In this document: one piece after another, positions 1 to 35,032 of the stretch
Numbering within the stretch: the first letter of the stretch is position 1
How the letters are laid out: every line of letters begins with the position of its first letter
Virus record (IMG/VR): IMGVR_UViG_2606217105_000003
Span: 1-35,286 of that record
Length of the DNA: 35,286 bases
Direction: 5' to 3' (one strand)
Source of the DNA: a virus
Lineage: Duplodnaviria > Heunggongvirae > Uroviricota > Caudoviricetes
Notes under the pieces: generated by a model
What the model was told of the DNA's origin: nothing
The model's input: only the letters and a program-made list of their open reading frames with translations
The model's database searches: none
Made by a program: the position numbers and the translations under genes

Positions 1-1275
1 GAACGTTACGAGAAAGCCCTGGCATCCGGTAAGAAAAAAACACGCGAAACCCGTAATGATGAGGCCACCCGGTTATTGCTGCAGTACAGTCAGCAACAGG
101 CACAGGTGGAAGGACAGATTGCTGCTGCCAGACAGTCAGCAGGCATTGCCACGGAAAGGATGACAGAAGCGCATAAACAGCTTCTGGCTCTGCAGCAGCG
201 CATCAGCGACCTGGACGGGAAAAAACTGACGGCAGATGAAAAGAGTGTGCTGGCCCGTAAAGATGAACTGATTCAGGCACTGACGCTGCTGGATGTAAAA
301 CAGCAGGAGCTTCAGAAACAGACGGCACTCAACGAGCTGAAGAAAAAAACAATTCATCTGACCAGTCAACTGGCTGAAGAAGAGCGCGCTCAGCTTCAGC
401 AACATGACCTGGATATCGCCACGGTGGGTATGGGTGATCAGCAGCGGCAGCGATATCAGGTACAACTGAGTCTTCGCCAGAAATACCAGCAACAGCTGGA
501 GCAGTTGAGGCGGGATAGTGAGCAGAAAGGGACATATAACACGGATGACTACAGAAAGGCCGAGCAGGCGCTGACGGAGAGCCTGAACCGACAACTGAAT
601 GAGAATCGCCGTTACTGGCAACAGCTTGAAGTTGTGCAGGGTAACTGGAAAAACGGAGTCCTGCGTGCATTTCAGGATTTTACCGTGGATGCAGATAATA
701 CGGCAGGAACAGCAGAACAGGTGTTCTCGTCAGCCTTCAGCAACATGGGAAATGGCCTGGCAACTTTTGTCACTACCGGCAAACTCAACTTCAAATCCTT
801 CACCTCTTCGGTGCTGTCAGATATGGCGAAAATCCTGGCGCAGGCAACCATGATGAAATCGATAAAAGGGATTGGCAGTGTACTGGGATTTGATCTCAGC
901 AGCCTTTCCCTGAATGCCAATGGGGGGATTTATCAGTCTGCTGATTTGAGTCGTTACAGTGGCACGGTGGTTAACCGTCCGACGTTTTTTGCTTTTGCAA
1001 AAGGCGCGGGTGTGATGGGGGAAGCTGGACCTGAAGCCATTCTGCCACTGCGTCGTGGTGCTGACGGTAAGCTGGGGGTTGTGGCGGATATTGGTGGTTC
1101 AGGTATGGCGATGTTTGCCCCGCAGTACAACATTGAGATCAATAACGATGGCACGAACGGGCAGATAGGTCCGGCTGCCCTGAAGGTGGTTTATGACCTT
1201 GGGAAAAAAGCGGCAGCGGACTTTATGCAACAGCAGGCCCGTGATGGTGGTCGGTTAAGTGGAGCATATCGGTAA
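1..1275 (+). CDS. Lambdoid tail tape-measure protein, C-terminal part (5'-truncated by window edge)
   Basis: Open frame runs from base 1 with no stop until TAA at 1273-1275. Glutamine-rich coiled-coil followed by a Gly-rich C-terminus, typical of lambda gpH-family tape-measure proteins. Directly upstream of an M-like gene start, as in lambda order H-M-L. Confidence 0.7.
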   Translation, partial: ERYEKALASGKKKTRETRNDEATRLLLQYSQQQAQVEGQIAAARQSAGIATERMTEAHKQLLALQQRISDLDGKKLTADEKSVLARKDELIQALTLLDVKQQELQKQTALNELKKKTIHLTSQLAEEERAQLQQHDLDIATVGMGDQQRQRYQVQLSLRQKYQQQLEQLRRDSEQKGTYNTDDYRKAEQALTESLNRQLNENRRYWQQLEVVQGNWKNGVLRAFQDFTVDADNTAGTAEQVFSSAFSNMGNGLATFVTTGKLNFKSFTSSVLSDMAKILAQATMMKSIKGIGSVLGFDLSSLSLNANGGIYQSADLSRYSGTVVNRPTFFAFAKGAGVMGEAGPEAILPLRRGADGKLGVVADIGGSGMAMFAPQYNIEINNDGTNGQIGPAALKVVYDLGKKAAADFMQQQARDGGRLSGAYR

Positions 1276-1340
1276 TGGAGACGTTTCACTGGAAAGTGCG
1301 CCCGGATATGAATGTGGTATCAGAGCCGAATATTGAGAAG
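1275..1340 (+). pseudogene. Lambdoid minor tail protein M, N-terminal 22 codons, interrupted by the Mu-like insertion
   Basis: ATG overlaps the H stop (TAATG). Translation METFHWKVRPDMNVVSEPNIEK matches my recollection of the lambda M N-terminus (MKTFRWKVKPGMDVASVPSVRK). The frame ends shortly after in phage-end sequence. Confidence 0.65.
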
Positions 1341-1520
1341 GAGTTTATTTGATACCAGAGAGAAAACCGGGAGAACATTAGAATAAACGGGATTTGGCGG
1401 GATAAAACAACGAGTTAGGTTGTGTTGTTAGGCTGATTTCGTGTTACCGCTTTTTTGATACCATCAAAGGAAAATGCCAGTTTGGGTAAAACTTTTGATA
1501 CTACGTCAAAAAACCTTCAA
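1341..1520. repeat. Left end (attL-like) with three direct copies of TTTGATAC(C/T), putative transposase binding sites
   Basis: Copies at about 1348-1356, 1454-1462 and 1494-1502. The segment AAAACCGGGAGAACATT (1363-1379) resembles Mu left-end AAAAACCGGGAGGACATT. Confidence 0.6.
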
Positions 1521-1676
1521 ATACTGTTCGATGGTTTTTAAACTCCCTCGCTCGCAGTAAATCTTTTCTTCGTTTTAGTCATACATCTACCGCAATGAGT
1601 ATCAGCAGGCCGCTACAGCGTTGACATAGTTCTACACCAACATCGAAAACAGCCTAATGAAATAGGCAAACTACTA

Positions 1677-2288
1677 TCAGCGGGCCTGCTGCTTTTTAGT
1701 TGTCAGGCTCTTGGACTGTTCATGGCGTAAAGGATGAGTGGTATCACACTCTCTCGCCTCGTTATCTGCAAAAGCCTGCTCCTCGGGCGTTCTGGGCTGG
1801 ATTCCCAGGATTTTCTCTTTCACTACGCGATCCATTTGTAGTAAGCGAATATTATCTTCGTCAAGGAGAAAAAGTAGTGTTTCTATCCCTTTGCGAGCAA
1901 GCACCTGGAATAACGCTTCTTTCTCGCTATCAGACAAAAAGCGGATCAGCGATAGGATTTTATCATCTAAATCTGAATGAGGCGGCACTAAACCGTCTTG
2001 AGTTCTTTTTATGTTCATTTCTGGTTCTTTTCCCTCTCCGGTTTGAAGCCATTCAAGGCTGACCCCTTCACACTGCGCTATCTTTTCTAACAGAGTTTTT
2101 CTTGGTACTGGAGAGAGGTCTTTACGTTTGTAATAGTTCTGTAACGTATTGATGTTGATTCCCCACGCTTTCGCAGCTTCATTTCTCGAACGATAGCGAT
2201 CTACTAGTTTAAAAATTCTATTGATAACAGGTTCTTTTGAATCAGGAGCAAAAGAACCATTGTGTTCTTTTTGAGTCTCACGTTTCAT
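1677..2288 (-). CDS. Prophage repressor (c-like), HTH DNA-binding protein
   Basis: Leftmost gene, divergent from ner-A-B. ATG at 2288 gives MKRETQKEH...; the track ORF extends upstream only through a TTG. Probable HTH segment EAAKAWGININTLQNYYKR. Sequence unlike the Mu c repressor as I recall it. Confidence 0.6.
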   Translation of the reverse strand: MKRETQKEHNGSFAPDSKEPVINRIFKLVDRYRSRNEAAKAWGININTLQNYYKRKDLSPVPRKTLLEKIAQCEGVSLEWLQTGEGKEPEMNIKRTQDGLVPPHSDLDDKILSLIRFLSDSEKEALFQVLARKGIETLLFLLDEDNIRLLQMDRVVKEKILGIQPRTPEEQAFADNEARECDTTHPLRHEQSKSLTTKKQQAR

Positions 2289-2439
2289 TTGCTTATCCAA
2301 TTGAATTAAAAGACAAAAAGTGCAGACACATAAAAAACACAAAAGAACATTTGACAAGTTCTTTTTGTGTTCTTATTCTTTGTCCGAGTGGATAACCGCG
2401 CGGTTATCCGCACGGATAACTTTTTAGGATAGTGGAATC
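2289..2439. promoter_or_regulatory. Operator and early promoter region between repressor and ner
   Basis: Consensus -35 TTGACA (about 2351-2356) with TATTCT about 17 bp downstream. Perfect 20-bp palindrome GGATAACCGCGCGGTTATCC (about 2390-2409) at the predicted transcript start, plus a third GGATAAC copy at about 2414-2420. Position matches the Mu operator/enhancer region. Confidence 0.55.
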
Positions 2440-2688
2440 ATGACTCGAAAAGAAGATCCGCGTGCCGATTGGCACCCTGAAATCATTAAGGCAGAGATTC
2501 ACAAACGGGGACTGTCATTTCGCGCACTGTCCATTCAGGCGGGTTACAGCAAAGACTCCCTCAAGAGTGTTTTACGCACACCGTGCAAACCTTATCAGCA
2601 GATTGTTGCTGATGCGCTGGGGGTTGCACCGGAAACTATCTGGCCCAGCCGCTATCAGACAGAAAGCTACATTCAGAAGGTATCCTGA
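2440..2688 (+). CDS. ner: Ner-like DNA-binding regulator (Ner/Nlp family)
   Basis: 82 aa; motifs DWHPEIIKAEIHKRGLSFRALS and ETIWPSRYQ resemble Mu Ner and E. coli Nlp; immediately upstream of the transposase. Confidence 0.8.
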   Translation: MTRKEDPRADWHPEIIKAEIHKRGLSFRALSIQAGYSKDSLKSVLRTPCKPYQQIVADALGVAPETIWPSRYQTESYIQKVS

Positions 2689-2691
2689 TTT

Positions 2692-4773
2692 ATGTTTGTT
2701 CTCGCCAAAGAGCTGGTCGGTGTACCAGGATTACCAAAAACAATTAAAGGAATTCGGGAAGCATTGCGCCGTTATTGCGGCGAATCAGAAGGAATGATGC
2801 GTAAGCGTGCAGGGACAAAGGCTTTTGAGTTCCATGTCGACTGTTTGCCTGATGTGGCGCGTAAGGCGTTACAGGCTCGCCAGATTAAGGCGTTAATGAA
2901 TCAGCCAGCAACTGAGGCAAAAGAACCTGAATCTCCGCGTTTAAAAAAACGTGAAGACGGCAAAATTGCGGTTTACCGCAAATGTCCTGCGCTGTTTGAG
3001 CAGAAACTCGGAACGTTAACCGCTACGCAAAAAGAAACAGCGGATGCCCGGATTGCGATTGTCAGCGAAGTTTTGCGCGTTTGTGAACTACCAGGAATCA
3101 GCCAGGCCGCCGCTATCCGTGAGTTTGTGAAACAGGCTCAAAACGGTGAGTTACCGGCACACCTGGTGGAAACCGTTGCAACTGCGAACGCGAAAAAAGG
3201 TTCTTTGCGCTCCCTTAGTGAAATATCACTGAAACGCTGGATTGCTGATTTTAAAAAAGCAACCACTCCGGCTGAACGTCTGATCATGCTGGCACCAGGC
3301 AAACGTCAGCCCATAAAACCAGACCAGATTCGCTGGTTACCAGAGTTTCTTCGCTTTTACCGCCGTCCGAACGGGTGCGGAATACGAGAGGCTTATGATG
3401 ATTTTGCTGCGGAATGGTATGAAGTGCATCAGGACAATCCTGCGATGTGTGCAGCACTGCCGTCGTATGATCAGGTTTGCTATGCCATGAACAAACTCCC
3501 GGTTGTTGTGAAACAACGTGGGCGCGTTACAGGCAGCGAGTTCCGGCAGTATGAAGGCTTCGTGCGTCGGGACTGGTTATCTTTACCGGTAAATTATGCC
3601 TGGATTGGTGATGGTCACGGCATGAAGATGAAAGTGGCACATCCTGATCACGGCAATCCATTTTCCCCAGAAGTCACCTTTATCATGGACGGCAGTTGCC
3701 GCTTTATTGTGGGCTGGAGTCTGGCACTTTCTGAAAGTGTGGTTGCTGTTGCTGATGCGTTACGCCACGGAATAAAAAATCACGGCAAACCGTATATCTA
3801 TTATTCAGATAATGGCGGCGGTGAAACCAATAACACGTTCGATGCTGATATTACGGGTGTCTTACCGCGTCTTGGAATTGATCACCGTCTTGGTATACCG
3901 GAAAACCCGCAAGGGCGAGGGATTATAGAGCGTCTGAACCGTACTCTGGCTATGCGCATATCACGCCAGTTTGCCACGTATTATGGCACCGGTGCCGACC
4001 GTGGAACGGTTCGCCGGACGACAAAGGCTCTGATATCTGCAACAAATGCGGCAAACAAAGGACGGGAGCTGACTGAAAAACAACGGCAGGCTTTAAAAAA
4101 CCTGCCGTCATGGAATGAACTTATTGCTGCTATTGAAGCTGGTGTGGAATGGTACAACAACCGTCCGCATAGTTCGCTACCACTACGTGGAAACGGTGAA
4201 CATTACACCCCGGCGCAGTTCCGACGCTACAAACTGGAAAAAGAAGCGACGGAAATCGAATGGTTGTCCGACCTTGAACTGCGTGAAATGTTTATGCCCC
4301 AGATTGAACGTACAGTCAACCGCTGTGAAGTCAGGCTGTTTAATAATATTTATTATTCAACTGACCTGGAATATGAGCACGGTAATAAGGTGCTGGTGAA
4401 TTACGATATTCATGATGCAACAAAAGTAATTATCCGCCGCATGGACGGTTCCTATATCTGTGAGGCTGTCTGGGATGGCAATAAACAGCAGGCATTCCCG
4501 GTCACTGCGGAATACCATCAGCGCCAGCAGCGTATCAAAGGGATGCGTCAGCGCGGAGAGGAAAAAATCAGACTGGCCGAGGCAGAGAATACCCGAACAC
4601 TGCCAGCTCCTGTTACAGGCAACGGGTTGTTCAGCAACGTCTACAGACCAGTGGAGAAAGTCGTGCCAGTGCTGGCAGATGAACCGGACGATGAATATGA
4701 AAGCGACCGCGACGAATATCTGAATAATTCACTGGATATTCTGGAACAGAACAGACGTAAAAAAGCCATTTAA
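2692..4773 (+). CDS. A: Mu-type DDE transposase A
   Basis: 693 aa; N-terminal LPGLPKT motif as in the MuA enhancer-binding domain; C-terminus DDEYESDRDEYLNNSLDILEQNRRKKAI nearly identical to the MuA C-terminus as recalled. Confidence 0.9.
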   Translation: MFVLAKELVGVPGLPKTIKGIREALRRYCGESEGMMRKRAGTKAFEFHVDCLPDVARKALQARQIKALMNQPATEAKEPESPRLKKREDGKIAVYRKCPALFEQKLGTLTATQKETADARIAIVSEVLRVCELPGISQAAAIREFVKQAQNGELPAHLVETVATANAKKGSLRSLSEISLKRWIADFKKATTPAERLIMLAPGKRQPIKPDQIRWLPEFLRFYRRPNGCGIREAYDDFAAEWYEVHQDNPAMCAALPSYDQVCYAMNKLPVVVKQRGRVTGSEFRQYEGFVRRDWLSLPVNYAWIGDGHGMKMKVAHPDHGNPFSPEVTFIMDGSCRFIVGWSLALSESVVAVADALRHGIKNHGKPYIYYSDNGGGETNNTFDADITGVLPRLGIDHRLGIPENPQGRGIIERLNRTLAMRISRQFATYYGTGADRGTVRRTTKALISATNAANKGRELTEKQRQALKNLPSWNELIAAIEAGVEWYNNRPHSSLPLRGNGEHYTPAQFRRYKLEKEATEIEWLSDLELREMFMPQIERTVNRCEVRLFNNIYYSTDLEYEHGNKVLVNYDIHDATKVIIRRMDGSYICEAVWDGNKQQAFPVTAEYHQRQQRIKGMRQRGEEKIRLAEAENTRTLPAPVTGNGLFSNVYRPVEKVVPVLADEPDDEYESDRDEYLNNSLDILEQNRRKKAI

Positions 4774-4810
4774 TTAACGTTTAAACAAAATTTAATTACG
4801 AGGTTATCAG

Positions 4811-5749
4811 ATGAATATTTCCGATATTCGTGCAGGACTGCGCACGCTTGTAGAAAATGAAAAAACAACTTATGCACAAATCGCCCGCGAGTCTGGGGTG
4901 GCCGCAGGAACGTTAAGCGCATTCGTGAATGACAAGTACAACGGCGACAATGAACGTGTCGCGCAGTCTCTTGAACGCTGGCTGGAGAACTATCACCGCG
5001 CCGCAGAACTGCCAGAACCCCCGCGTTTTGTGGAAACCAGAACGGTCCGCCAAATCTGGACAAGTATGCGTTTTGCCAGCCTGACTGAAAGTATTTCTGT
5101 TATCTGTGGTAATCCAGGAGTGGGAAAAACTGAAGCGGCCCGCGAATTTCGTCGCACCAATAACAATGTCTGGATGATCACCATTACCCCATCCTGTGCC
5201 AGTGTTCTGGAATGCCTGACTGAACTGGCTTATGAACTGGGAATGAATGACGCACCGCGCCGTAAGGGGCCACTCTCCCGCGCTTTGAGACGCCGTCTTG
5301 AAGGTACGCAGGGGCTGGTCATTATCGACGAAGCTGATCATCTTGGCGCTGAGGTTCTGGAAGAACTCCGCCTGTTACAGGAGTCCGCCCGTATTGGTCT
5401 TGTTCTGATGGGGAATCACCGCGTTTATTCAAACATGACCGGTGGTAACAGAACGGTTGAATTTGCCCGCCTGTTTTCCCGTATTGCCAAACGGACGGCA
5501 ATCAATAAAACCAAAATTGACGATGTAAAAGCCATTGCGGATGCCTGGCAAATTACCGGCGAAAACGAGCGGGAATTATTACAACAGATTGCACAAAAAC
5601 CAGGTGCGCTTCGTATCCTGAATCACTCGCTGCGCCTTGCGGCCATGACAGCCTACGGTAAAGGCGATCGTGTTAATGAAAATTATCTGCGTCAGGCTTT
5701 CCGTGAATTAGACCTGGACGTTGATATTTCAACCCTGCTGCGCACGTAA
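4811..5749 (+). CDS. B: Transposition target DNA activator B (AAA+ ATPase)
   Basis: 312 aa; [17 protein letters not shown]... with Walker A GNPGVGKT and Walker [10 protein letters not shown]; near-identical to Mu B as recalled; directly downstream of A. Confidence 0.9.
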
Positions 5750-5762
5750 GGAGAGCGAAATC

Positions 5763-5990
5763 ATGATGTCACGGAATATCAAAATGGCGACGGAAGTAAA
5801 GACCTGGTTACAGGAGCGCGGCAGCCACGTCAACGAATCCTGGCTGGGCGTGGCCCGCCCGGTGCTTGAAATTACCTGCCCGCCACCGGAGCTGGTCAGA
5901 AACGCTGTCAGGATTATGGAGCATAAATCAGGGGTTGCCCGTTCCGTATGGACGGCCCGCCTTAATGGTTGCCAGATTATCTGGCGTTAA
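5763..5990 (+). CDS. Small early protein, Kil-like by position
   Basis: 75 aa from ATG with RBS AAGGAG upstream (track ORF begins at an upstream TTG). First gene after B as kil is in Mu. Assignment by synteny only. Confidence 0.4.
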
Positions 5991-6022
5991 TAACGGCTTA
6001 TTTATTTGTGAGGAATAACAAA

Positions 6023-6292
6023 ATGGCAAAAGTAATCTTTGAATTTAACCGCATGGAAGATGTTGAGTTTCAGAAAAAAGGAGGTTTCTTTGTAGGAATG
6101 AGTGTGCAACTGGAAGAACAGTCTCCTAAGGAGCAAATCGGACCGCATGACGTGATGGCAGGCATTATCAAGAGCATGGCTCCTGAAATTATTGAAAAAG
6201 CAACCCAGGAGTTGTTGAAGTCAGCCAGAGAACTTGGGCTGGAAGCCGAAGGCGAGTTATTCCGGTATAACCCGGATGCAGCCAAACATTAA
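6023..6292 (+). CDS. Hypothetical early-region protein
   Basis: 89 aa from ATG after GAGGAATAACAAA; in the semi-essential early region. Confidence 0.45.
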   Translation: MAKVIFEFNRMEDVEFQKKGGFFVGMSVQLEEQSPKEQIGPHDVMAGIIKSMAPEIIEKATQELLKSARELGLEAEGELFRYNPDAAKH

Positions 6293-6308
6293 TTTCAGGG
6301 AAGGAGGC

Positions 6309-6599
6309 ATGATGATAATCCCTCGCAAAAGATGGTCACGCGAAGACCGGGAATTTATCGAAGCCAACGTCGGGAAACTGACCGTTGAAGAAATGGCGAA
6401 AAAACTGAACGTTGCCCCAACCGCCCTACAGGCGCATGCCAGAAGGCACGGAATATCGTTGTGTGCATACCGGGTCAGTGAGCACGACAAATATTTGTGT
6501 CGTGAACTTTATAAAGAAGGGCTGGCTATTCATGTGATAGCCCAGAAGATGGAATTAAGCAATCGTGCTGTATCCAGCATTGTATACAGCGAATATTAA
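6309..6599 (+). CDS. Hypothetical early-region protein with probable HTH
   Basis: 96 aa from ATG after AAGGAGG; segment LTVEEMAKKLNVAPTALQAHARRHGISL looks like a helix-turn-helix. Confidence 0.45.
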   Translation: MMIIPRKRWSREDREFIEANVGKLTVEEMAKKLNVAPTALQAHARRHGISLCAYRVSEHDKYLCRELYKEGLAIHVIAQKMELSNRAVSSIVYSEY

Positions 6600-6617
6600 T
6601 TAACAGGAGCTTTATTT

Positions 6618-7142
6618 ATGGCTAGACCAGTAAAACGAATCAAGAACGCCGCAGCGGCTTATGTTCCACAGTCCCGCGATGCAGTGATGTGTGATATTCG
6701 CCGGATTGGTGACCTGCAACGCGAAGCGGCACGACTTGAAACGGAAATGAATGACGCTATCGCTGAAATTACTGAGAAATACGCCTCACAGATTACGCCG
6801 CTTAAAACCAGCATTGAAACCCTTTCAAAAGGCGTTCAGGGATGGTGTGAAGCGAACCGTGACGAACTGACGAACGGCGGTAAGGTGAAGACGGCAAATC
6901 TGGTAACCGGCGATGTGTCATGGCGTCAGCGCCCACCATCAGTAAATATTCGCGGTGTGGATGCGGTGATGGAAACACTGGAGCGTCTTGGCCTGCAACG
7001 CTTTATTCGCACGAAACAGGAAATCAACAAGGAAGCGATTTTACTGGAACCGAAAGCGGTCGCAGGTGTTGCCGGAATTACAGTTAAATCAGGCATTGAA
7101 GATTTTTCTATTATTCCGTTTGAACAGGAAGCCGGTATTTAA
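6618..7142 (+). CDS. gam: Gam, host-nuclease inhibitor (DNA end-binding, Ku-like)
   Basis: 174 aa; MARPVKRIKNAAAAYVPQSRDAV...GIEDFSIIPFEQEAGI closely matches Mu Gam as recalled. Confidence 0.85.
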   Translation: MARPVKRIKNAAAAYVPQSRDAVMCDIRRIGDLQREAARLETEMNDAIAEITEKYASQITPLKTSIETLSKGVQGWCEANRDELTNGGKVKTANLVTGDVSWRQRPPSVNIRGVDAVMETLERLGLQRFIRTKQEINKEAILLEPKAVAGVAGITVKSGIEDFSIIPFEQEAGI

Positions 7143-7240
7143 TATCACCATTAATATTTAATTAGTTCACTTTCTTTTAATTATGGCGCGATGCGTCAGG
7201 GGATTGCTCGCGCCTGAAACAGATTACTAAGGAATAAAAA

Positions 7241-7780
7241 ATGGTTGATGCAAAAGTTCTGAACGGTGTCAGCACATTATTACGGGCTTACGGGCGTCTG
7301 ACCTGTGGCGTTCTGGCTGAAAAAATGAATATGCCACCTTCCTCAATGGTGTATTTCCTGCGTGATGCGGTTGATGCCGGAGTTCTCACTGAAAGCAACG
7401 GATTTTATGACGTTCCGCGCCCTCGTCAGACGCCGCCAGTAAGACGAAACGCAACGGAGCAACCCGCTGTTGATGATGCTAAATGGTGCACGTTCCGTCG
7501 TTCGTTGCCCTGGCTGGAAAGCAACGCCATTCCGGCACTGGCAAAAGAATTTGCGACAGGCGTACTGACCTGCGAGTCGGTTCACATCGTTGCAGAAGTG
7601 GATGACGAGATGTGCAAACAGGGAATGCCTCGTTTTGCGATGGCGCATATCGATTTACGGCTGGGGCGTTTTATTTGCAGTTTAAGCGGCTGGAATATCA
7701 CCGACCATGTGGTGCGTTATCTCATTCTTGATTATTCACCGGTTCCGGCGACAACACAGGAAGTCAGCGAGCATGGTTAA
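7241..7780 (+). CDS. Hypothetical early-region protein
   Basis: 179 aa; ATG preceded by AAGGAATAAAAA; no recognised family. Confidence 0.5.
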   Translation: MVDAKVLNGVSTLLRAYGRLTCGVLAEKMNMPPSSMVYFLRDAVDAGVLTESNGFYDVPRPRQTPPVRRNATEQPAVDDAKWCTFRRSLPWLESNAIPALAKEFATGVLTCESVHIVAEVDDEMCKQGMPRFAMAHIDLRLGRFICSLSGWNITDHVVRYLILDYSPVPATTQEVSEHG

Positions 7781-7955
7781 GTCAATTGGCTTTGTCCTGC
7801 TGGTTGGCACCTGCGGGAATGATGCCTGCGATGCCATCCCGGTAACGGAAAAAATCTGGCCCACAGAGCAGGCCTGTATGCAGGTGATGGAGCGCATACA
7901 AAAACGTTATCCCAGTGAAATCTTTTATTGCGAAGAGGTATTACGAAATGAATAA
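7773..7955 (+). CDS. Small Cys-rich hypothetical protein
   Basis: 60 aa from ATG overlapping the upstream stop (ATGGTTAA); hydrophobic N-terminus VLLVGTCGNDAC; seven cysteines in 60 aa. Confidence 0.35.
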   Translation: MVKSIGFVLLVGTCGNDACDAIPVTEKIWPTEQACMQVMERIQKRYPSEIFYCEEVLRNE

Positions 7956-8337
7956 CGCAGAGAAAAATGAAATTAAATCCACATCCGCCAGCACCAGAAA
8001 ACATCTTTATGATTTTTATGTTGCCTATAACCAGTGGTTAAAAAATGGTGCACCAGAAACAGAGGGTGAAATATTTGTTCAATATTCAGGATTATGTGCA
8101 AATGCTTGTCGTTATTTTGACGAAATCGGAGTGGATACCGAAGATATATTAGAACAATTACGTGCAGATTTTATCGCGAACGAGTTGGATGAATTATTAC
8201 CTTTCAATGAAAGTAGAGCGCACTATCATGAGGAATGCAGACTTGGCAGATGTCACCTGAATTCTGCTCGTGTGGCATGGGTCGAAAAACACTGCATTAA
8301 GGAGATGGGACATAATGAGCCGCACATCCCTGATTAA
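7948..8337 (+). CDS. Hypothetical protein, AT-rich (moron-like)
   Basis: 129 aa from ATG after GAGGT; visibly AT-rich relative to neighbours; no recognised family. Confidence 0.4.
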   Translation: MNNAEKNEIKSTSASTRKHLYDFYVAYNQWLKNGAPETEGEIFVQYSGLCANACRYFDEIGVDTEDILEQLRADFIANELDELLPFNESRAHYHEECRLGRCHLNSARVAWVEKHCIKEMGHNEPHIPD

Positions 8338-9749: not shown

Positions 9750-9770
9750 TTATCTTCCCTTAATTCAATG

Positions 9771-9795: not shown

Positions 9796-9849
9796 TGCCT
9801 CCGGCACTATGAAGCAGACCACGTTTAACTCTGCTTCACAGGTGCTTTT

Positions 9850-26863: not shown

Positions 26864-27933
26864 TGGAATCCGTGATTCTTACCGTTGACGGCAAATTGTG
26901 GGAAGGCTGGACGGAAATGTCCATCAGCCGTTCCCTGAAGGCGATTGCCGGTGAGTTTGATCTCAGTGTGACAACCCGCTGGTCGGCGGCGGCACCGCGC
27001 GTGATTCGTGAGGGGCAACCCTGCACGGTCAGGCTGGGCGCGGATACCGTGCTGACGGGGTATATCGATGATTTTATCCCCAGCTATGACGCAGATAACG
27101 TGGAGATTCGCGTCATGGGGCGCGACAAAACCGGCGACCTGGTTGACTGCTCTGTGGTGCATTCGTCCGGGAAATGGAAAGGCGTGCGGCTTGAACAGGT
27201 GGCGGCTGATGTCTGCTGCCCGTTCGGGATAACCGTCATTACGGAAACCCCGACCGGGGAGGCGTTTGCGTCTGTCGTTCTGGAACAGGGTGAAACGGGT
27301 TTTGAACTGCTCGACCGGCTGGCAAAACAGCGCGGCGTTCTGCTGACGTCTGACGGCGCAGGTAACCTGATTATCACCCGCGCCTCTTCCGTTCGCGCGG
27401 GTGTGTCACTGGTGCTGGGGAAAAATATCCTCGCCGCCCGTGGACGCTTCAGCTGGCGGGAGCGTAACAGCCAGTACATCATCAAAGGCACCACCAGTGC
27501 CGGTGGCAAACTGTGGGACAGCCAGCCTGCCTCGATGGTGGGCGGTCGCCAGTACATCACCGAAGACCCGGAAATTAACCGTTACCGCCCGCGCATTCTG
27601 GTCAATGAAGACAGCCTGACCGTGGGCGGGGCCAGCATTCGCGGGGAATGGTACAAAGCCCGGATGCTGGGGGAATCCCGCACGACGGAAATCACGGTGG
27701 CAGGCTGGCGCGAACAGGGCGACAGCGGCCCGCTGTGGCAGACCAATCGCCTTGTCGATATCGACGACAGCATTCAGAACCTGAAAACCACCTGGCTGAT
27801 ATCCGGGGTGACCTGGACGGATGGCGCACAGGGGCGGATGACGGTTCTGGCGCTGGTTCCGCCTGAATCACTGGACATGCCGGAAATGAAAGCGAAGACG
27901 AAGAAAACAAAGGCGGTGGCCACATGGGATTAA
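26863..27933 (+). CDS. Baseplate hub protein (Mu P-like)
   Basis: 356 aa; position and size. Confidence 0.65.
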   Translation: MESVILTVDGKLWEGWTEMSISRSLKAIAGEFDLSVTTRWSAAAPRVIREGQPCTVRLGADTVLTGYIDDFIPSYDADNVEIRVMGRDKTGDLVDCSVVHSSGKWKGVRLEQVAADVCCPFGITVITETPTGEAFASVVLEQGETGFELLDRLAKQRGVLLTSDGAGNLIITRASSVRAGVSLVLGKNILAARGRFSWRERNSQYIIKGTTSAGGKLWDSQPASMVGGRQYITEDPEINRYRPRILVNEDSLTVGGASIRGEWYKARMLGESRTTEITVAGWREQGDSGPLWQTNRLVDIDDSIQNLKTTWLISGVTWTDGAQGRMTVLALVPPESLDMPEMKAKTKKTKAVATWD

Positions 27934-28460
27934 ACGCTATTGCCCGCCGTCTGCGGCTGCTGGTTGACCGTGCCGTTGTCCGCATGGTGTCTGACAGTCT
28001 GGAGCGGCAGAACCTGCAAATCCAGACGCTGGCAGATGCCACTGATGACGATGTGGAACGCTTCCAGAATTACGGGTTTACTTCCGTTCCGCCGGAAGGT
28101 TCAGAAGCTATTGTGCTGGCCGTTGGCGGACGGCGTGATGGTCTGGTTGCCATTGCGGTGGAAGACAAGCGATGTCGCCCTAAAGGCCTGTCCCCCGGCG
28201 ACGTCCGGCTGTATCACCGGGACGGAAAATCACACATCACCCTGAAGGAAAACGGCGTCATTCAAATCACAGGAGAACAATTAAACGTTTCAGGGAAAAC
28301 GGTAAATCTCACCGCCGACGAATTGCTGAATATTATCGGTAAACAAATGAAATTCGTCGGTCCCTGTGAATTTACTGAAGATGTCAGAATCAACGGTAAA
28401 TCATTCATCGAACACATTCATAAGGACGGCGACAATGAGAATACATCACCGCCCGTATGA
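27924..28460 (+). CDS. Baseplate spike/assembly protein (gpV-like, Mu Q/gp45 family)
   Basis: 178 aa; position and size. Confidence 0.65.
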   Translation: MGLNAIARRLRLLVDRAVVRMVSDSLERQNLQIQTLADATDDDVERFQNYGFTSVPPEGSEAIVLAVGGRRDGLVAIAVEDKRCRPKGLSPGDVRLYHRDGKSHITLKENGVIQITGEQLNVSGKTVNLTADELLNIIGKQMKFVGPCEFTEDVRINGKSFIEHIHKDGDNENTSPPV

Positions 28461-28909
28461 CGACAGGAATCCACTGGAATAACATGCTCTCACGGGGTGA
28501 CATCACCGTCACCCATAACGGCCTCTCGCTGGATGAGGGGCTGGTCACTCAGGTTCTTATCTGCCTTTTCACCGATGCCCGTGCTGATGACGATGATGTC
28601 ATCCCTGATGGTTCCGGCGACCCGCGCGGCTGGCCGGGCGACACATACAGCGATTTTTCGTGGGGTTCCCGCCTGTGGCTGCTTGAACGCGAAAAGCTGA
28701 CGGAAGATGTCCGCCTGCGCGTGGAGGATTACGCGCGACTGTCCATGCAACCGCTGTTGCGGGCCGGTTACGCCCGTAACGCCACCGTCACGGCCAGAAT
28801 CATCGTCCCTGACTGTATTGCCTTTCAGGTGGTGTTAACCCGCCCGGACAAAACCACGCTCACAATCGAAATCACCCGCCGATGGGAGGCCACCATTAAT
28901 GCCGTATGA
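28457..28909 (+). CDS. Baseplate protein (Mu gp46 family)
   Basis: 150 aa; position. Confidence 0.6.
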   Translation: MTTGIHWNNMLSRGDITVTHNGLSLDEGLVTQVLICLFTDARADDDDVIPDGSGDPRGWPGDTYSDFSWGSRLWLLEREKLTEDVRLRVEDYARLSMQPLLRAGYARNATVTARIIVPDCIAFQVVLTRPDKTTLTIEITRRWEATINAV

Positions 28910-29987
28910 AATCCCCACGCTGGGCAAGCTGATTGCCGACGGCGAGAAAGATATTGCGTATGAACTCGGTCTGCAAAAGCTGCCGCCTGTCAGTGTTGAG
29001 CAGGCGCTGAACGTGTCGTTCAGCAGTCAGGTCCGGGATTTATACGACCATCAGAGCTGGATTAAGGACCAGATAATCCCCTCCACCGCATCTGATGATG
29101 AAACCATTATCAAAACAGCAACGTATGAAGGGGTTATCCGCAAGCAGGCCACCTTTGCCAGCGGGCCGGTGACCTTCACCAGTCAGTCCCCCATTCCGGC
29201 AGAAACCCGGATGCAGTCCGACACGAATCAGGTGTATCAGGTACTAACATCCGGCGAGGTACAGGACGGCGAGGTCACCGTCATCGTGCAGGCTGAAGAA
29301 GCCGGTGTGGCGGGCAATCTTGCTGCCGGTGCCGTGCTCACTCTGTTGTCCCCGCTACCCGGAACGGGCAGCACCGGCGCGGTGACTGAAAGTGGCATCA
29401 CCGGTGGCGCAGACATCGAATCCATCGCAGAGCTGCTGGACCGTCTGCTGTATGTGCGTCGCAATCCCCCGGTGGGTGGTGCGCTGCATGACTACGTGAT
29501 ATGGGCGCGTGAAGTGCCGGGCGTCAGCCGCGCGTGGGCGTGGGATGCATGGCACGGCCCCGGCACGGTCGGGCTGGCATGGCTTTATGATGACCGTGAA
29601 GACATTGTGCCGACCCGCGAAGACCTGAAGACAATGGAGCAGTATCTGTTCTGCCACAAACACCCGGCCACCGGCGTGATGGTGGGCAAACCGGGCGGCA
29701 TCGAGGTCTGGCCGGTACAGGTCAGACTGATTAAAGTTCATTTATCCATCCGTCTGACACCGGACAGCCAGGTGAACAGGAACGCCGTCCGGGCAAACCT
29801 GACCGCATTACAGAAAACGCTGACCCCCGGTCAGATGCTGCCGGTGTCCTCGCTGCGCACGGCCATCGGTATGACGTCCGGCATCACAGACTACTTCCTC
29901 AACATCGGGGAGGACACCACCTGTGACGTGGATGAACTTATCACCATCGGGGAGGTTACATGGCTCACAGCGTCACGGAATGGCTGA
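28899..29987 (+). CDS. Baseplate wedge protein (gpJ-like, Mu gp47 family)
   Basis: 362 aa; position and size. Confidence 0.65.
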   Translation: MPYEIPTLGKLIADGEKDIAYELGLQKLPPVSVEQALNVSFSSQVRDLYDHQSWIKDQIIPSTASDDETIIKTATYEGVIRKQATFASGPVTFTSQSPIPAETRMQSDTNQVYQVLTSGEVQDGEVTVIVQAEEAGVAGNLAAGAVLTLLSPLPGTGSTGAVTESGITGGADIESIAELLDRLLYVRRNPPVGGALHDYVIWAREVPGVSRAWAWDAWHGPGTVGLAWLYDDREDIVPTREDLKTMEQYLFCHKHPATGVMVGKPGGIEVWPVQVRLIKVHLSIRLTPDSQVNRNAVRANLTALQKTLTPGQMLPVSSLRTAIGMTSGITDYFLNIGEDTTCDVDELITIGEVTWLTASRNG

Positions 29988-30544
29988 CCGCACTGCAACA
30001 GGTCATGCCTCGGGGTAAGGCATGGCCGCGTGATAACGACGCGGATTTAAACCGTTTTTTAAGGGCGCTTGCAGAGCGTTTAACCCGCGTTGAATACGAC
30101 GCCTCGCGCCTGCATGTGGAGATGCGCCCGGAAACCACGCTCCAGCTGCTGCCGGAGTGGGAGCAATATCTGGCGCTGCCGGAATGCGGAATTGCCGCCA
30201 CCACAACGGAAGCCCGCCGCCGGGCCGTGGTGGAGAAATACCACCGCAAAGGCGGGCTGGCAACCTGGCAGATTGAAGCCGCTGCGGCGGCGCTGGGCTT
30301 CACCATTAAGGTGACGGCCGTTCTGCCGCATCACTGTCTGCGCGACTGTATGTATCCGCTGCATCCGGCCCGGTATCGCTGGCTGCTGAAAGTGGAAGTC
30401 CCGGACAAAGATGCCGGACGGTTTACCTGTATTGATGACGTCATGACGCCATTAATCAGCGAACGGACCCGCGAGCTGGAATGCCTGCTGAAGCATTACC
30501 GGCTGGCGGGCACGGAATATGAATATTATTACACCGGAGAATAA
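29960..30544 (+). CDS. Baseplate/tail protein (Mu gp48 family)
   Basis: 194 aa; position before the tail fibre gene. Confidence 0.6.
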   Translation: MAHSVTEWLTALQQVMPRGKAWPRDNDADLNRFLRALAERLTRVEYDASRLHVEMRPETTLQLLPEWEQYLALPECGIAATTTEARRRAVVEKYHRKGGLATWQIEAAAAALGFTIKVTAVLPHHCLRDCMYPLHPARYRWLLKVEVPDKDAGRFTCIDDVMTPLISERTRELECLLKHYRLAGTEYEYYYTGE

Positions 30545-30547
30545 TTT

Positions 30548-31309
30548 ATGTTTCATGTGGATAATCCGACGGGTGTGCCGGTGATGCCACCTGTCGCGGC
30601 TGAATTAAGCAAAACAACGCTTTATTTTACCGAAGGCGGGAACGGTATTCCGCCCACTTATCCGGGGCCGGACTGGTTTAATATTATTCAGTCTGAACTG
30701 CTGGAAATTCTCCGGCAGGCAAATATCAAACCGGATAAAAACACCACCGACCAGATTATGACGGCACTGAAAAAACTGTTTATTACGAACAGTGGTTCAG
30801 CCGGTGCCATTGCCGGATTAACCGGTGAGAATAATACGTTCCCGTATTTTACCGGCGAAGACACAATGGCATTAACACCGCTCAGTGCTTTTGTGCGCGG
30901 TATTCTCGGGAAAAACACAGCCGGTGAAATTATCGAAGCACTTTCATTACGTGACACGGTAAATAAAGCCAACAGTGCTGTACCGAATACCCGCAAGGTC
31001 AACGGCATGGCCCTGTCTTCGGATATCACCATCAGCAACATCAGCGGCAACGCCGGAACGGCAACCCGGCTTCAGACGGCCCGCAGGATTAATAATGTGC
31101 TGTTTGATGGCACCAGCGATATCACCATCACAGCTACAGGTGTGCAGGATATACGTCTGGGCAGCGCCATTGGTATTGGACGTGGCGGGAATGCACCATC
31201 AGGTCATTTGCTGAGCGGTGTTGATGGCGGTGAAAGTGTGGACTGGGCCAATGCACGCCCGGTGCAGGTTCTGATTAATGGCGTCTGGCGAAATGTAGCG
31301 AGTTTGTAA
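30548..31309 (+). CDS. Tail fibre protein (short, Mu S-like)
   Basis: 253 aa; C-terminal ...VLINGVWRNVASL resembles the C-terminus of P2 H-type fibres (...INGTWYNVAQV as recalled). Confidence 0.65.
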   Translation: MFHVDNPTGVPVMPPVAAELSKTTLYFTEGGNGIPPTYPGPDWFNIIQSELLEILRQANIKPDKNTTDQIMTALKKLFITNSGSAGAIAGLTGENNTFPYFTGEDTMALTPLSAFVRGILGKNTAGEIIEALSLRDTVNKANSAVPNTRKVNGMALSSDITISNISGNAGTATRLQTARRINNVLFDGTSDITITATGVQDIRLGSAIGIGRGGNAPSGHLLSGVDGGESVDWANARPVQVLINGVWRNVASL

Positions 31310-31311
31310 TC

Positions 31312-31860
31312 ATGATGCACTTAAAAAATCTTACGGCACAAAACCCTAAAACAATTGAGCAATACCAGCTGGCGCGACAGCATAAATTTTTATTGTGGCT
31401 GTTCTCCGATGATGGTCAGGAATGGCACGAAGCCCAGGAAAAATTTCAGCCAGACACTCTGAAAGTTATTTATGTTGAAACTGGCGAAGTGGTCTGGGTT
31501 GGAAAATACATCACCTCAATCTGCCCGGAAAATAAAAGCGTGATTGAGCTACCGGATATTACCGCCAATCGTCGCATTGATGCGTCGGGTTACTGGTTCT
31601 ACCGCAATGATGAATTTGTTTTTGACTACAAACTTAAAGCGGAAGATGAGCGTGATGCACTGTTAAAACAGGTCAGCATCGTGACCAGTGAATGGGAAAA
31701 AGACCTGCTGCTTGGATTAATCAGCGACGAAGAGAGGGAGAAGCTGAAATCGTACCGCATTTACGCGAAATCGCTGCGGGCAATGGATTTCAGCGCCATC
31801 ACAGATAAAGCCACATATAACGCCATCAACTGGCCGGAGCATCCTGATGCCGCAGCTTAA
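31312..31860 (+). CDS. Tail fibre assembly chaperone (Tfa, Mu U-like)
   Basis: 182 aa; immediately after the fibre gene. Confidence 0.7.
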   Translation: MMHLKNLTAQNPKTIEQYQLARQHKFLLWLFSDDGQEWHEAQEKFQPDTLKVIYVETGEVVWVGKYITSICPENKSVIELPDITANRRIDASGYWFYRNDEFVFDYKLKAEDERDALLKQVSIVTSEWEKDLLLGLISDEEREKLKSYRIYAKSLRAMDFSAITDKATYNAINWPEHPDAAA

Positions 31861-33664
31861 AGGTATAATTACATCCCCTGTGGGAGAACCGCTGAGCGGA
31901 GCAACAATAACCCTGACCTCACTACACAATCAACCCGGGATCCTGAGAGGTGTTTACAGTCACGTAACCACTCTGAGCGGTGAATATGATTTCCCCGTGC
32001 TGCCCGGAGTATATAGTGTTCGTCTGACACACAGTTCACAGCGCCTTGCAGAAATCGGGGTCATTCGGGTCTATATGGATTCGCGCGATGGTTCACTTAA
32101 TGATTTTCTGGGAGCAACTGAAATTGACTTACGACCAGAATCTTTGCGCAGATTCGAAGAACTGGCAGACAAGGTGCAGGAAAATGCAGATACGGCGGCA
32201 TCATCATCCCAACAAGCAGTAAAGATTCTGGAAGCTATTCAAAACATAGCCGGGAATATATCCGGTCTGCGTTACGAAAATTTTACTGACATACTCAGCC
32301 GTTGCACGACAGCCATGCTGAAACTGGAACAACCCGAGGTTGTTGATACATCAATATCTTTAAAAATAAAAGAAAATATCGATTTTAATTATGTCGGTGA
32401 AGTTAACGGATATTGCGATATTTCTGAACCAGAAAAGTATAAAGTCGAAATGTATGCTTATACAACCGGAGAGTATTTTAACGGCGACGCTAATTTGAAT
32501 AGTGACGGAACTTTCTATTTCAGACGTTGCTGGACGGGAGCAAAACAGTTTCGTCTTATTCGGATTGAGGATAATGCGTGGATCACAACGCTGGAGTTTC
32601 CACTGCTCATTCGTAGCTACTGGATGCCGGAGGACGCAGACCCCGAAGTGATCAGGGTGATGAAAGATCGGTGTTACACGTATGACCAGGCGCTGGCAGC
32701 ACTGGCGTTGATGGTTCAGCGACATGAGGCTGTAGAAAGATACGTTGCGGGCTTGTGTGCGCTTGTTGATGAAAACGGTGGAGTAAAGTTTTTTGTTAAC
32801 AGGCTGTCGGCCATGTCACCGCGTACCTATTACCGCCTGGGGAATGCGGCATGGGTTTATTATGCTTTGGCCTTTTATCTGGAGAAATATCCGGACGGAG
32901 CGCAGGTAAATATTGTTCGGGAAAAGTTGTTATCCGGCATTGTCTGGCTTGATTCTTTCCTTGTGACAACAGAAGGTGACCTGAGAGAAGGTTTATATAA
33001 AGGCGGCCTTGGTCGTTATGTAAATGGCGAATTTGACGCCAGTTTTGTTGCTGAATGGTGCGCACTGGAGCACAACGTAGATATCTGGTTTTTGTTTGAA
33101 CTGATGGGGCGGCTGGGATTTGATGGTTTCACCAAACGTGCAGAAAAACTGGCGCAAAGCATCATCAGGGGGATGTGGGTGGAAGAAGAGGGACGATTCC
33201 GTCAGGGGGTGCATCCAACACACTATGACAACGCGGCAGCACTGGATCAATCTTCCTGGGGAGGATTGTTTATAGCCAATATAGATACCGGGAAAGCAGC
33301 AAGATGTCGTAAGTACATGGGGCGTTTTTTATTTGGCACGCGGGAAACAACAGGTTATACACCGTATCACCCTGACTACGGTTACAGTGGTCACAGTCGC
33401 GGCGTGTGGGTGGAAGGAACTGCGGGCGTGGCACTGTTTGAGCGCAAACTGGGTAACGAGCTGAATGCAGTGAATCTCATTGCTGCAATGGCCCCGCTTT
33501 TTAATAAGTTTGGTTACAGAGATTCATGTGATGATCCAACCTATGATGTGCTACCTCCGTGGCCATCAACAACAAACACAGCCTGGATAATCCTGACGCT
33601 AAAACCAGAAAATTTCTGGTTAGTGGATTCACCTGAAATGGATGTTGGTATGATTCGGTACTGA
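31847..33664 (+). CDS. Chimeric tail-fibre-like protein: lambda Stf-type N-terminal anchor fused to a globular enzyme-like C-terminal domain
   Basis: 605 aa; start overlaps the Tfa stop. N-terminal ~130 aa matches the lambda side-tail-fibre N-terminus as recalled (motifs YSV, LNDFL, RPExLRRxE). C-terminal ~400 aa is Trp/Tyr-rich without fibre repeats. An AT-rich linker lies at about 32300-32520. Confidence 0.55.
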   Translation: MPQLKGIITSPVGEPLSGATITLTSLHNQPGILRGVYSHVTTLSGEYDFPVLPGVYSVRLTHSSQRLAEIGVIRVYMDSRDGSLNDFLGATEIDLRPESLRRFEELADKVQENADTAASSSQQAVKILEAIQNIAGNISGLRYENFTDILSRCTTAMLKLEQPEVVDTSISLKIKENIDFNYVGEVNGYCDISEPEKYKVEMYAYTTGEYFNGDANLNSDGTFYFRRCWTGAKQFRLIRIEDNAWITTLEFPLLIRSYWMPEDADPEVIRVMKDRCYTYDQALAALALMVQRHEAVERYVAGLCALVDENGGVKFFVNRLSAMSPRTYYRLGNAAWVYYALAFYLEKYPDGAQVNIVREKLLSGIVWLDSFLVTTEGDLREGLYKGGLGRYVNGEFDASFVAEWCALEHNVDIWFLFELMGRLGFDGFTKRAEKLAQSIIRGMWVEEEGRFRQGVHPTHYDNAAALDQSSWGGLFIANIDTGKAARCRKYMGRFLFGTRETTGYTPYHPDYGYSGHSRGVWVEGTAGVALFERKLGNELNAVNLIAAMAPLFNKFGYRDSCDDPTYDVLPPWPSTTNTAWIILTLKPENFWLVDSPEMDVGMIRY

Positions 33665-33828
33665 AGCAATTCAGCATGAAAAGTGGATGTGGAGCGTACT
33701 TATAAATAATCATTTTGTATAGTTTATGACGATCGATAGCATCATATCGATCGTCGGTTTGCATCAGTTGTGATTAAATACCCCCAGCCCTCCGGGCGGT
33801 CATGTCTGGTTATTACACAGGGGGAATC
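33665..33828. promoter_or_regulatory. mom operon control region with GATC-containing inverted repeat
   Basis: 11-bp perfect inverted repeat GACGATCGATA-N6-TATCGATCGTC (about 33728-33755) carrying two GATC sites, upstream of com; in Mu, Pmom is controlled by Dam methylation/OxyR and activated by C. Confidence 0.5.
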
Positions 33829-34014
33829 ATGGACTCTGTTCGCTGTAAAAACTGCAATAAATTACTGTTTAAAGGAGGTTTTAAGCATATAGAAATTAAA
33901 TGCCCTCGCTGTAAACGTTACATTGTCATATCGAATGCCAAAGAGCATCCCACGGAGCTGTATTGTGGGAAAAGAGAAGAAATCACGCGTTCTGACAAAA
34001 CCCTGCGTTATTGA
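33829..34014 (+). CDS. com: Com, zinc-finger translational activator of mom
   Basis: 61 aa from internal ATG ([14 protein letters not shown]...CPRCKR...) with C4 zinc finger; track ORF 33802..34014 extends upstream. Confidence 0.8.
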
Positions 34015-34669
34015 GTATGAAGGCCGGATTGTCGGCTATGGTTCAAAGGAGCTACGTGTTGAAACCATATCCTGCTGGCTGGCCCGCACAATCATTCAGA
34101 CAAAACACTATTCCCGCCGTTTTGTGAATAACTCCTACCTGCATCTTGGCGTATTCAGCGGACGTGATCTGGTTGGCGTTCTTCAGTGGGGATATGCCCT
34201 TAACCCCAACTCAGGGCGTCGGGTCGTGCCTGGAACGGATAACCGGGGCTATATGGAACTGAACCGCATGTGGCTACACGACGACATGCCCCGCAACTCT
34301 GAGTCACGGGCCATCAGCTACGCGCTGAAAACCATCAGGTTATTGTATCCGTCAGTGGAGTGGGTTCAGTCCTTTGCAGACGAACGCTGCGGACGCGCAG
34401 GCGTTGTATATCAGGCGTCGAATTTTGATTTTATTGGTAGCCATGAAAGCACGTTCTACGAGCTGGACGGCGAGTGGTATCACGAAATAGCGATGAACGC
34501 GATTAAGCGCGGAGGGCAACGAGGCGAGTATTTGCGGGCTAATAAGGAGCGGGCCGTGGTACACAAATTTAATCAGTATCGCTACATCAGGTTCCTGAAC
34601 AAGCGTGCAAAAAAGCGCCTAAACACCAAGCTATTCAGGATTCAGCCATACCCCAAAAACACATCTTGA
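33935..34669 (+). CDS. mom: Mom, DNA modification (adenine carbamoylmethylation) anti-restriction protein
   Basis: Frame overlaps com; sequence ...[25 protein letters not shown]... matches Mu Mom as recalled. True start uncertain: ATG at 33935 or GTG at about 33965 with GGAG upstream; track ORF begins at TTG 33923. Confidence 0.8.
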
Positions 34670-34768
34670 TTTGTATCAAATAATTTTCCGTAATGCCGTT
34701 TTGGGTGGTATCAAAAAAAATCCAAAACGGTATCAAATAATTTCGCGCGCTTTACGAAAGTGGTGACA
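34665..34768. repeat. Right end (attR-like) with three GGTATCAAA copies
   Basis: TTGTATCAAA (about 34671-34680), GGTATCAAA (about 34707-34715 and 34729-34737), inverse orientation to the left-end repeats; terminus ...GTGACA. Confidence 0.6.
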
Positions 34769-35032
34769 GTGAAGCTGGGCGATGGTTATGAACAGCGTCG
34801 TGCGGCGGGACTGAATAACCAGTTGTCGACTTACAGCGTGACGATACGTGTTCGTAAATGTGAACACCCATCTTTAAAAGCCTTTCTGGAACGGCACGGT
34901 GGCGTCCGCGCATTTCAGTGGACGCCACCTTATGACTGGAAACCGATTAGGGTGGTTTGTCGTAAATGGTCGGCAAGCGTGGGGGCGCTGTGGGTAGCCA
35001 TAACGGCAGATTTTGAACAGGTCGTGGCATAG
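34769..35032 (+). pseudogene. Lambdoid minor tail protein M, C-terminal part resuming after the insertion
   Basis: VKLGDGYEQRRAAGLNNQLSTYSV...ADFEQVVA aligns with lambda M from VRFGDGYSQRAPAGLNANLKTYSV... to its end; the two fragments together equal lambda M length (109 aa). Confidence 0.7.

Follow-up and report, generated by a model that had tools for sequence, protein, structure and literature searches.

A Mu-like prophage with TA...TA tips and a 4-bp target duplication interrupts the minor tail gene M of a lambdoid prophage

The stretch of DNA analysed here (the window) comprises 35,286 nucleotides (nt), positions 1 to 35,286 of the IMG/VR virus record IMGVR_UViG_2606217105_000003. It carries a Mu-like transposable prophage that splits the minor tail gene M of a lambdoid prophage, and only short pieces of lambdoid tail genes remain in view on either side. 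The features that define the locus are listed below, with the evidence for each in brackets.

1..1275, plus strand: H-like tape-measure gene, 3' part (Pfam Tape_meas_lam_C and TMP_4; 99.9-100% identical to annotated Escherichia coli tape-measure genes)
1275..1330, plus strand: minor tail gene M, 5' fragment, codons 1-18 plus 2 nt (the match to intact M ends at 1330)
1327..1330, no strand: target-site duplication, left copy, CGAA (flank alignments)
1331..34754, plus strand: Mu-like transposable prophage of 33,424 base pairs (bp), which starts TATTGAGAAGG and ends GCGCGCTTTA
1331..1501, plus strand: left end of the insert, with three putative transposase-binding sites TTTGATAC at 1348, 1454 and 1494 (motif count)
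34673..34754, minus strand: right end of the insert, with three inverted TTTGATAC sites at 34673, 34708 and 34730 (motif count)
34755..34758, no strand: target-site duplication, right copy, CGAA (flank alignments)
34755..35032, plus strand: M, 3' fragment, from the rest of codon 19 to the stop (the match to intact M-L starts at 34755)
35042..35286, plus strand: minor tail gene L, 5' part (Pfam Phage_tail_L, E = 3.6e-22; RefSeq annotation of the intact locus)

Thousands of E. coli genomes contain intact lambdoid H-M-L regions to which the flanks are 99.8-100% identical. The stop codon of the tape-measure gene overlaps the start codon of M at 1275 (TAATG), and M stands between the tape-measure gene and L as it does in lambda, in agreement with the RefSeq annotation of the intact locus. 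A reading made earlier from the letters of the window (hereafter the sequence-only reading) had described an M-type gene starting at 1275 and ending at 35032, flanked in lambda order by an H-like 3' end and an L-like gene, and had proposed that a Mu-like prophage lies inside it. Pfam matches bear out the first of these statements, and the second holds as well, since about 33.4 kb of Mu-type gene content interrupts M.

The exact junctions were defined by comparing the left flank (600-1800) by megablast with 5,426 complete E. coli genomes, and the right flank (34300-35286) in the same way with E. coli genomes. Intact H-M homology, at 99.9-100% identity, reaches only as far as window position 1330, and intact M-L homology is found only from 34755 onward. 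In strain 377323_2f (NZ_CP039404.1) the left match runs to 857174 and the right one starts from 857171, an overlap of four bases (857171-857174) which means that the window contains four bases in two copies. At the empty site the sequence is GTATCAGAGCCGAAAGTGGTGACAGTGAAG (in the intact locus L001, GAGCCGAAAGTGG), while the window reads ...GAGCCGAA directly followed by TATTGAGAAGG at the left junction, and GCGCGCTTTA directly followed by CGAAAGTGG... at the right one. Removal of 1331-34758, which joins 1275-1330 to 34759-35032, yields a 330-nt open reading frame (ORF) identical at 329 of 330 positions to the intact M gene of 377323_2f. Its 109-amino-acid (aa) product matches the Pfam model of lambda M (Phage_min_tail, PF05939) end to end, over 108/108 positions (E = 3.6e-39), and sits between H and L as in lambda. 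M is thereby cut after 18 codons and 2 nt, and the window copy differs from lambda M in being a pseudogene split at codon 19.

These junctions are not the ones that the sequence-only reading had drawn, and the doubt that it had expressed about its own boundaries was warranted, as the flank alignment shows them to be off by 10 and 14 bases. It had ended the left piece at codon 22 (position 1340); the true junction is at 1330, and the supposed M codons N-I-E-K are the first 10 phage bases, TATTGAGAAG. It had resumed M at 34769, when the true right junction is at 34755 and the real codons 19-22 (K-V-V-T) lie at 34757-34768. The two pieces do sum to the 109 codons of lambda M, only because the two junction errors cancel. 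In place of the unclean 5-bp duplication that it had described (AGAAG versus TGAAG) there is a perfect 4-bp repeat, CGAA, at other positions (1327-1330 and 34755-34758), and the 5 bp that it had expected gives way to the 4 bp typical of this phage. The alignment to an uninterrupted H-M-L region that it had put forward as a check thus defines both the empty site and the duplication, and shows the two pieces to be parts of one gene. A canonical Mu-type insertion with junctions at 1340 and 34769 and a mutated 5-bp duplication could still appeal to the first 10 insert bases, which keep the M frame open, and to pieces that total 109 codons. However, intact alleles part from the window at 1331 and rejoin it at 34755, the empty site has bases 34755-34768 (CGAAAGTGGTGACA) as part of M, and TATTGAGAAG at 1331-1340 is the conserved phage start at 16 other insertion sites and in Yersinia phage vB_YpM_Tongde (hereafter Tongde), known from a sequenced virion genome. 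The empty-site alignment refutes this alternative, to which we give practically no credence.

The two tips of the insert are TA...TA. The same tips were found in 9/9 insertions of a first junction table and at every further left or right end examined, and the T and A are not target bases, as the empty site in M has C and A at these places. Behind the tips comes the octamer TTTGATAC. The window has 8 copies of it, where 0.82 would be expected by chance, and six of the eight are at the two ends: three within 171 bp of the left end, spaced by 106 and 40 bp, and three inverted copies within 82 bp of the right end, spaced by 35 and 22 bp. In Mu, the left end has one site at the tip and two further in, while the right end has three close together; the left spacing of 106/40 bp is presumably like that of the Mu sites L1, L2 and L3. 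The inverted repeat TTATTTGATACC lies 5 nt from the left junction and 28 nt from the right one when counted from the junctions of the sequence-only reading; this asymmetry vanished once the junctions were set at 1330/1331 and 34754/34755.

For 11 insertions of the phage family both junctions could be determined; their duplications are as follows.

Window: CGAA
A21: AGTA
STEC388: TGCG
FDAARGOS_943: TGTT
JCKP02: TAAG
12A: CGCG
S6: TTAA
1290: GTGA
SRR36487423: TCCA
GCA_000351565.1 (loci L029 and L039): AGTTA, 5 bp, or alternatively 4 bp with one extra A at the left tip
FDAARGOS_1059: no duplication, with different genes on the two sides

Nine of the 11 are thus perfect 4-bp duplications, one is 5 bp long and one insertion is rearranged and has none. 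Predicted empty sites were built by deleting TA...TA together with one 4-bp copy; those of JCKP02 (in mscM) and 1290 (in ydcO) are identical at 296/296 positions to sequences in >5,000 E. coli genomes, so that, with M in the window, empty sites are verified for three insertions. As a positive control, the same procedure applied to the true Mu of E. coli W returned TG...CA ends and a 5-bp duplication, GCCGC. The Mu junctions and flanks of B-766 are identical to those of E. coli W, and were counted as the same insertion and not as a second control. Two other descriptions of the junctions were rejected. One was a 5-bp duplication with one mismatch, perhaps due to a donor-flank nucleotide retained after flap removal; the fifth base agrees in only one of the eight 4-bp cases of the first junction table, as chance predicts, and this description is also ruled out by the invariant T and A, which the three empty sites show to be no part of the target. 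The other, a 6-bp duplication in which T and A were replaced at every insertion, would merely describe again a T and an A that belong to the element. The neighbours of FDAARGOS_1059 (NZ_CP066032.1, L009/L010) are a carbohydrate ABC-transporter permease pseudogene and, across the phage, an SDR oxidoreductase pseudogene, which suggests a phage-mediated rearrangement (inversion, deletion or recombination between two copies).

The family is widely dispersed, with >20 different flanking sequences recorded. Phage Tongde and the prophages of STEC388, A21, FDAARGOS_943, JCKP02, 12A, S6 and 1290 have left and/or right termini identical to those of the window phage, and the E. coli relatives share its 4-bp duplication. 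The insertions in A21 (yciH locus, where the annotated yciH coding sequence overlaps the phage left end) and STEC388 (in a DUF945 gene), as well as Tongde, match the window exactly from base 1331, and STEC388 and FDAARGOS_943 match it exactly to base 34754. Across Tongde and the E. coli relatives the insertion sites differ and modules are shuffled, and none of these phages lies inside M. An identical transposase protein was found in 45 blocks of the assembly collection and in at least 8 places, all with different chromosomal neighbours, and sister copies differ from the window by 1-32 mismatches per 13,443 nt (99.8-99.99% identity). Such near-identical copies at many different sites indicate that the phage has recently been active, by transposition or infection. 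The Mom protein with its ATG start led to one contig with an identical right end and a different flank, while exact-pattern scans of species-representative genome contigs gave no further copies.

From these results we conclude, with a probability of roughly 93%, that M, in a lambdoid prophage already resident in E. coli, was hit in codon 19 by a Mu-like transposable phage which integrated through DDE transposition. Flanks that belong to one gene, in the same orientation, and share a 4-bp duplication are the signature of a single simple insertion. Several observations weigh against this conclusion or parts of it. The 4-bp duplication and the TA tips run contrary to what Mu biochemistry predicts, and the near-identical phage of GCA_000351565.1 provides the sole 5-bp case; either the stagger is not perfectly fixed, or one extra (donor) base was carried along. 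Of the lambdoid prophage no more than 1.3 kb and 0.5 kb lie in the window, and other lambdoid prophages in the same cell could complement M, as the M-L region is present in up to 9 copies per E. coli genome. Lastly, both window junctions are absent from every genome in the searched collections, and the insertion rests on one assembly.

This last point, together with the common role of prophage repeats in misassembly, is what speaks for a chimeric contig that joins a Mu-like prophage to lambdoid tail DNA not adjacent to it. A misjoin, however, would neither place both junctions at exact phage termini nor give a perfect 4-bp repeat of a single-copy target; besides, M returns to 329/330 identity on removal of the insert and the duplication has the length characteristic of this phage family. 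We hold an assembly artefact to be very unlikely. The M halves could also lie at the ends of different phage copies, brought together by recombination or by replicative transposition (inversion, deletion or co-integrate formation), and FDAARGOS_1059, with different genes on each side and no duplication, tells that rearrangements do occur in the family. The window does not have this appearance, as its flanks are contiguous in one gene, in the same orientation and with a shared 4-bp duplication, and we regard such an event as extremely improbable.

Under the simple insertion that we favour, we infer the transposition chemistry, like the inducibility and the tail defect considered below, the mechanism being drawn by analogy with Mu. 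The transposase A would bind and assemble on the six end sites, three per phage end, and the MuB-type ATPase would deliver the target DNA, the B-bound target being captured. The two 3'-OH ends would then attack target phosphates 4 nt apart, and host repair of the gaps would leave the CGAA duplication. Once integrated, the phage would silence its early operon through its own repressor (1677-2288, minus strand).

The insertion leaves M as two fragments. In place, the 5' fragment runs into the phage end, where bases 1331-1352 add N-I-E-K-E-F-I-stop in the M frame; its translation gives a predicted 25-aa product, METFHWKVRPDMNVVSEPNIEKEFI*, made of 18 M residues and 7 foreign ones. The 3' fragment is now without start codon or promoter. 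M is required for tail assembly in lambda genetics. Foreign DNA of 33.4 kb would stand between the late promoter and the rest of M with the downstream genes L-K-I-J and, with M reduced to a stub, the outer lambdoid prophage should lose tail building; by analogy with lambda, it should be incapable of making tails on its own. For annotation, the locus is to be read as two nested prophages and not as one 40-kb-plus mosaic, the outer of which has probably lost tail making.

The gene content of the insert is as follows.

1677..2288, minus strand: c-like repressor, 203 aa per the sister-copy gene calls (PHROG 3037 transcriptional repressor, E = 1.6e-42)
2440..2688, plus strand: Ner-like early regulator (Pfam HTH_35, E = 8.5e-22)
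2692..4773, plus strand: transposase A, 693 aa (Pfam HTH_Tnp_Mu_1, rve and Mu-transpos_C)
4811..5749, plus strand: MuB-type AAA+ target-DNA activator (90% identical to Mu B; Pfam Phage-MuB_C, E = 3.9e-32, and AAA_22)
5763..7142, plus strand: semi-essential early region (DNA 86-87% identical to Mu, D108 and SfMu)
5763-5990, plus strand: Kil (Pfam Kil_protein in sister copies)
6618-7142, plus strand: Gam (Pfam Phage_Mu_Gam, E = 8.6e-43)
8315-8866, plus strand: GemA-like gene (Pfam GemA)
8863-9273, plus strand: Mor middle-gene activator (Pfam Mor, E = 3.9e-29)
9270..9749, plus strand: accessory ORF, 159 aa, between mor and the endolysin gene (PHROG 38744, function unknown, only)
9850..10437, plus strand: endolysin (Pfam Glyco_hydro_108, GH108, and PG_binding_3)
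12758..19274, plus strand: head module, with gp27-like protein, large terminase, Mu portal, F-like protein, protease I and major head protein gpT (Pfam Phage_Mu_Gp27, Terminase_6N, Portal_Mu, Phage_Mu_F, Mu-like_Pro and Mu-like_gpT)
21417..33664, plus strand: contractile tail module (Pfam Phage_sheath_1, DNA_circ_N, GpP-like, Baseplate_J, Caudo_TAP and phage_tail_N; PHROG tail-fibre families)
33829-34014, plus strand: com (Pfam Zn_ribbon_Com)
33935-34669, plus strand: mom (Pfam Mom, E = 4.5e-76)

The tail module runs in the order sheath, tube, tape measure, DNA-circularisation N, baseplate P/V/gp46/J, fibre, fibre assembly protein and second fibre; its fibre region, two fibre genes and one assembly gene, is directly followed by com. 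Neither an invertase nor an invertible fibre segment was found: the insert has no recombinase ORF and all its fibre genes (30548-33664) lie on one strand. The lack of the Mu invertase and invertible segment, when the A21 relative has an invertase, would suit a decayed and immobile remnant. Against this stand the intact ends, with both tips, all six end sites and the duplication, and the major genes, all of them full length when compared with the related prophage of FDAARGOS_943, the entire head module included. The sister copies, 99.8-99.99% identical at many sites, also speak for recent transposition or infection. A remnant is therefore unlikely, and the insert looks complete and, as far as its genes can tell, capable of induction.

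The transposition module is a mosaic. By BLASTP, transposase A is 24% identical to MuA overall, with 22.9% in the body and 77% in the last 35 aa, which read ...DDEYESDRDEYLNNSLDILEQNRRKKAI in the window. HTH_Tnp_Mu_1 (29.1 bits, cutoff 23.3) and Mu-transpos_C (67.8 bits) both score above their cutoffs, while the rve core stays below (24.9 versus 32.6); the predicted DDE residues are D307, D373 and E413, and retroviral integrase cores and the MuA N-terminal domain 1tns are matched weakly. Along the DNA, similarity of 86-87% to Mu, D108 and SfMu sets in near 4687, inside the 3' end of A, and extends to about 7746. In FDAARGOS_943, the A body is 57% identical to that of the window, its tail 26%, and its B, of a non-Mu type, 40%; tail and B are thus both of the other type, which indicates that the A tail travels with its B partner. 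In Mu, the C terminus of MuA contacts MuB and ClpX, which predicts that the A tail is inherited with B. The co-variation of tail and B looks, on these comparisons, like a natural domain swap, and it offers a natural experiment on the matching of the A C-terminal tail to its B partner.

The insert is a Mu-like transposable phage in the broad sense, with a Mu-domain transposase, a MuB-type B, many target sites and inverted end repeats. It shares with Mu (and with D108 and SfMu) the gene order c, ner, A, B, kil, gam, mor, lysis, head, contractile tail, com and mom, the 90% identity of B, the 86-87% DNA identity from the 3' end of A to gam, the 77% identity of the 35-aa tail of A, three transposase sites at each end with Mu-like spacing (in the Mu layout given above) and near-random insertion with a short duplication. 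It is not Mu proper, from which it departs in its tips and duplication (TA...TA and 4 bp instead of TG...CA and 5 bp), in its transposase body (only 23-24% identical) and end-site motif (TTTGATAC), in being without both gin and the invertible G segment, and in a late region dissimilar at the DNA level. Its close relatives are elsewhere. The transposases of Tongde, A21 and STEC388 are 97-99.7% identical to that of the window, the Tongde protein at 97.4% (tblastn) and 97.9% over the body, although the DNA match to Tongde covers only 28% of the query (window 1331-21000). The late proteins of FDAARGOS_943 are mostly 94-99% identical, with the tape measure and the tail fibres more diverged. The A21 prophage differs in carrying an invertase; with the same ends, it has a recombinase gene and oppositely oriented fibre genes (L006, 789-1406). 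After Tongde, the nearest phage transposases in the collection searched are those of the Klebsiella prophage ST405-OXA48phi1.1 (46%) and of the Pseudomonas D3112 group (D3112-type, Casadabanvirus; 30-31%), over about 90% of the length. D3112 starts with TG, and the D3112-type phages are siphoviruses with late genes unrelated to those of the window phage. For the D3112-like phage Ab30, a five-base-pair shift between the two insertion orientations is described, which we take to imply a 5-bp stagger.

By the account of a 2021 survey, every Mu-like and B3-like phage end known at the time was TG-CA, with a duplication of 5 bp for Mu and 6 bp for B3 (PMC8705779). The same survey describes a subset of Leptospira prophages with TA-TA ends, a B3/Tn552-type transposase and a 6-bp duplication, and raises the question of TA-TA prophages in other bacteria (PMC8705779). 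The window phage resembles these Leptospira prophages (WETA1 type) in its TA...TA tips, similar size and A/B module; it differs in having Mu-type transposase domains, 4 bp and an E. coli host, where they have a B3/Tn552-type transposase, 6 bp and a spirochaete host (PMC8705779). The E. coli prophages studied here suggest, in answer to the question of that survey, that TA-TA transposable prophages exist beyond Leptospira, in a host where the genetics and biochemistry of Mu are to hand. Their sequences also suggest that a Mu-architecture transposase is able to use TA instead of CA at the cleaved ends and a 4-nt instead of a 5-nt stagger.

A Mu-like prophage nested in another prophage is in itself ordinary and expected from near-random insertion, and the non-canonical ends are modestly novel. 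The analysis adds the corrected anatomy of the locus, a clean duplication and a lineage that departs from Mu in tips, duplication length and transposase ancestry. We propose tentatively, at somewhat less than even odds, that the phage belongs to an undescribed lineage of enterobacterial Mu-like phages, with a 4-nt stagger, TA...TA termini and a chimeric transposase in which a foreign DNA-binding and catalytic body is joined to a Mu tail for interaction with MuB and ClpX, inherited with B. If this holds, TA-TA transposable phages would be known for the first time from outside Leptospira, and for the first time with a Mu-domain transposase. The sequence facts behind this proposal are well supported, the uncertain part being whether the lineage is unreported: in a searchable literature that is incomplete, we found no paper that reports TA ends, or a duplication of 4 bp, for Mu-like phages of enterobacteria, and none describing phage Tongde.

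Further observations concern the relatives and the accessory gene. The Tongde record (MT591577.1, L021 1-2310) has about 2.3 kb of non-phage DNA directly outside the left end, one of whose genes carries the annotation IS5376-type ATP-binding protein; presumably, packaged host DNA was taken up into the record during assembly, which fits Mu-style packaging of host flanks. Within the insert, the accessory ORF at 9270-9749 is without a Pfam or PADLOC match and without a counterpart in the FDAARGOS_943 relative. Its N terminus (MKYFPLILLLSVFCANA) is signal-peptide-like, and the ORF is possibly a lysogenic-conversion gene (moron). Finally, the family has entered lambdoid tail genes a second time, independently of the insertion in M: in the IMG/VR contig L025 (1360-3105) its right end, ...GCGCGCTTTA, stands about 100 nt upstream of the lambda-type genes V (tail tube), G and T.

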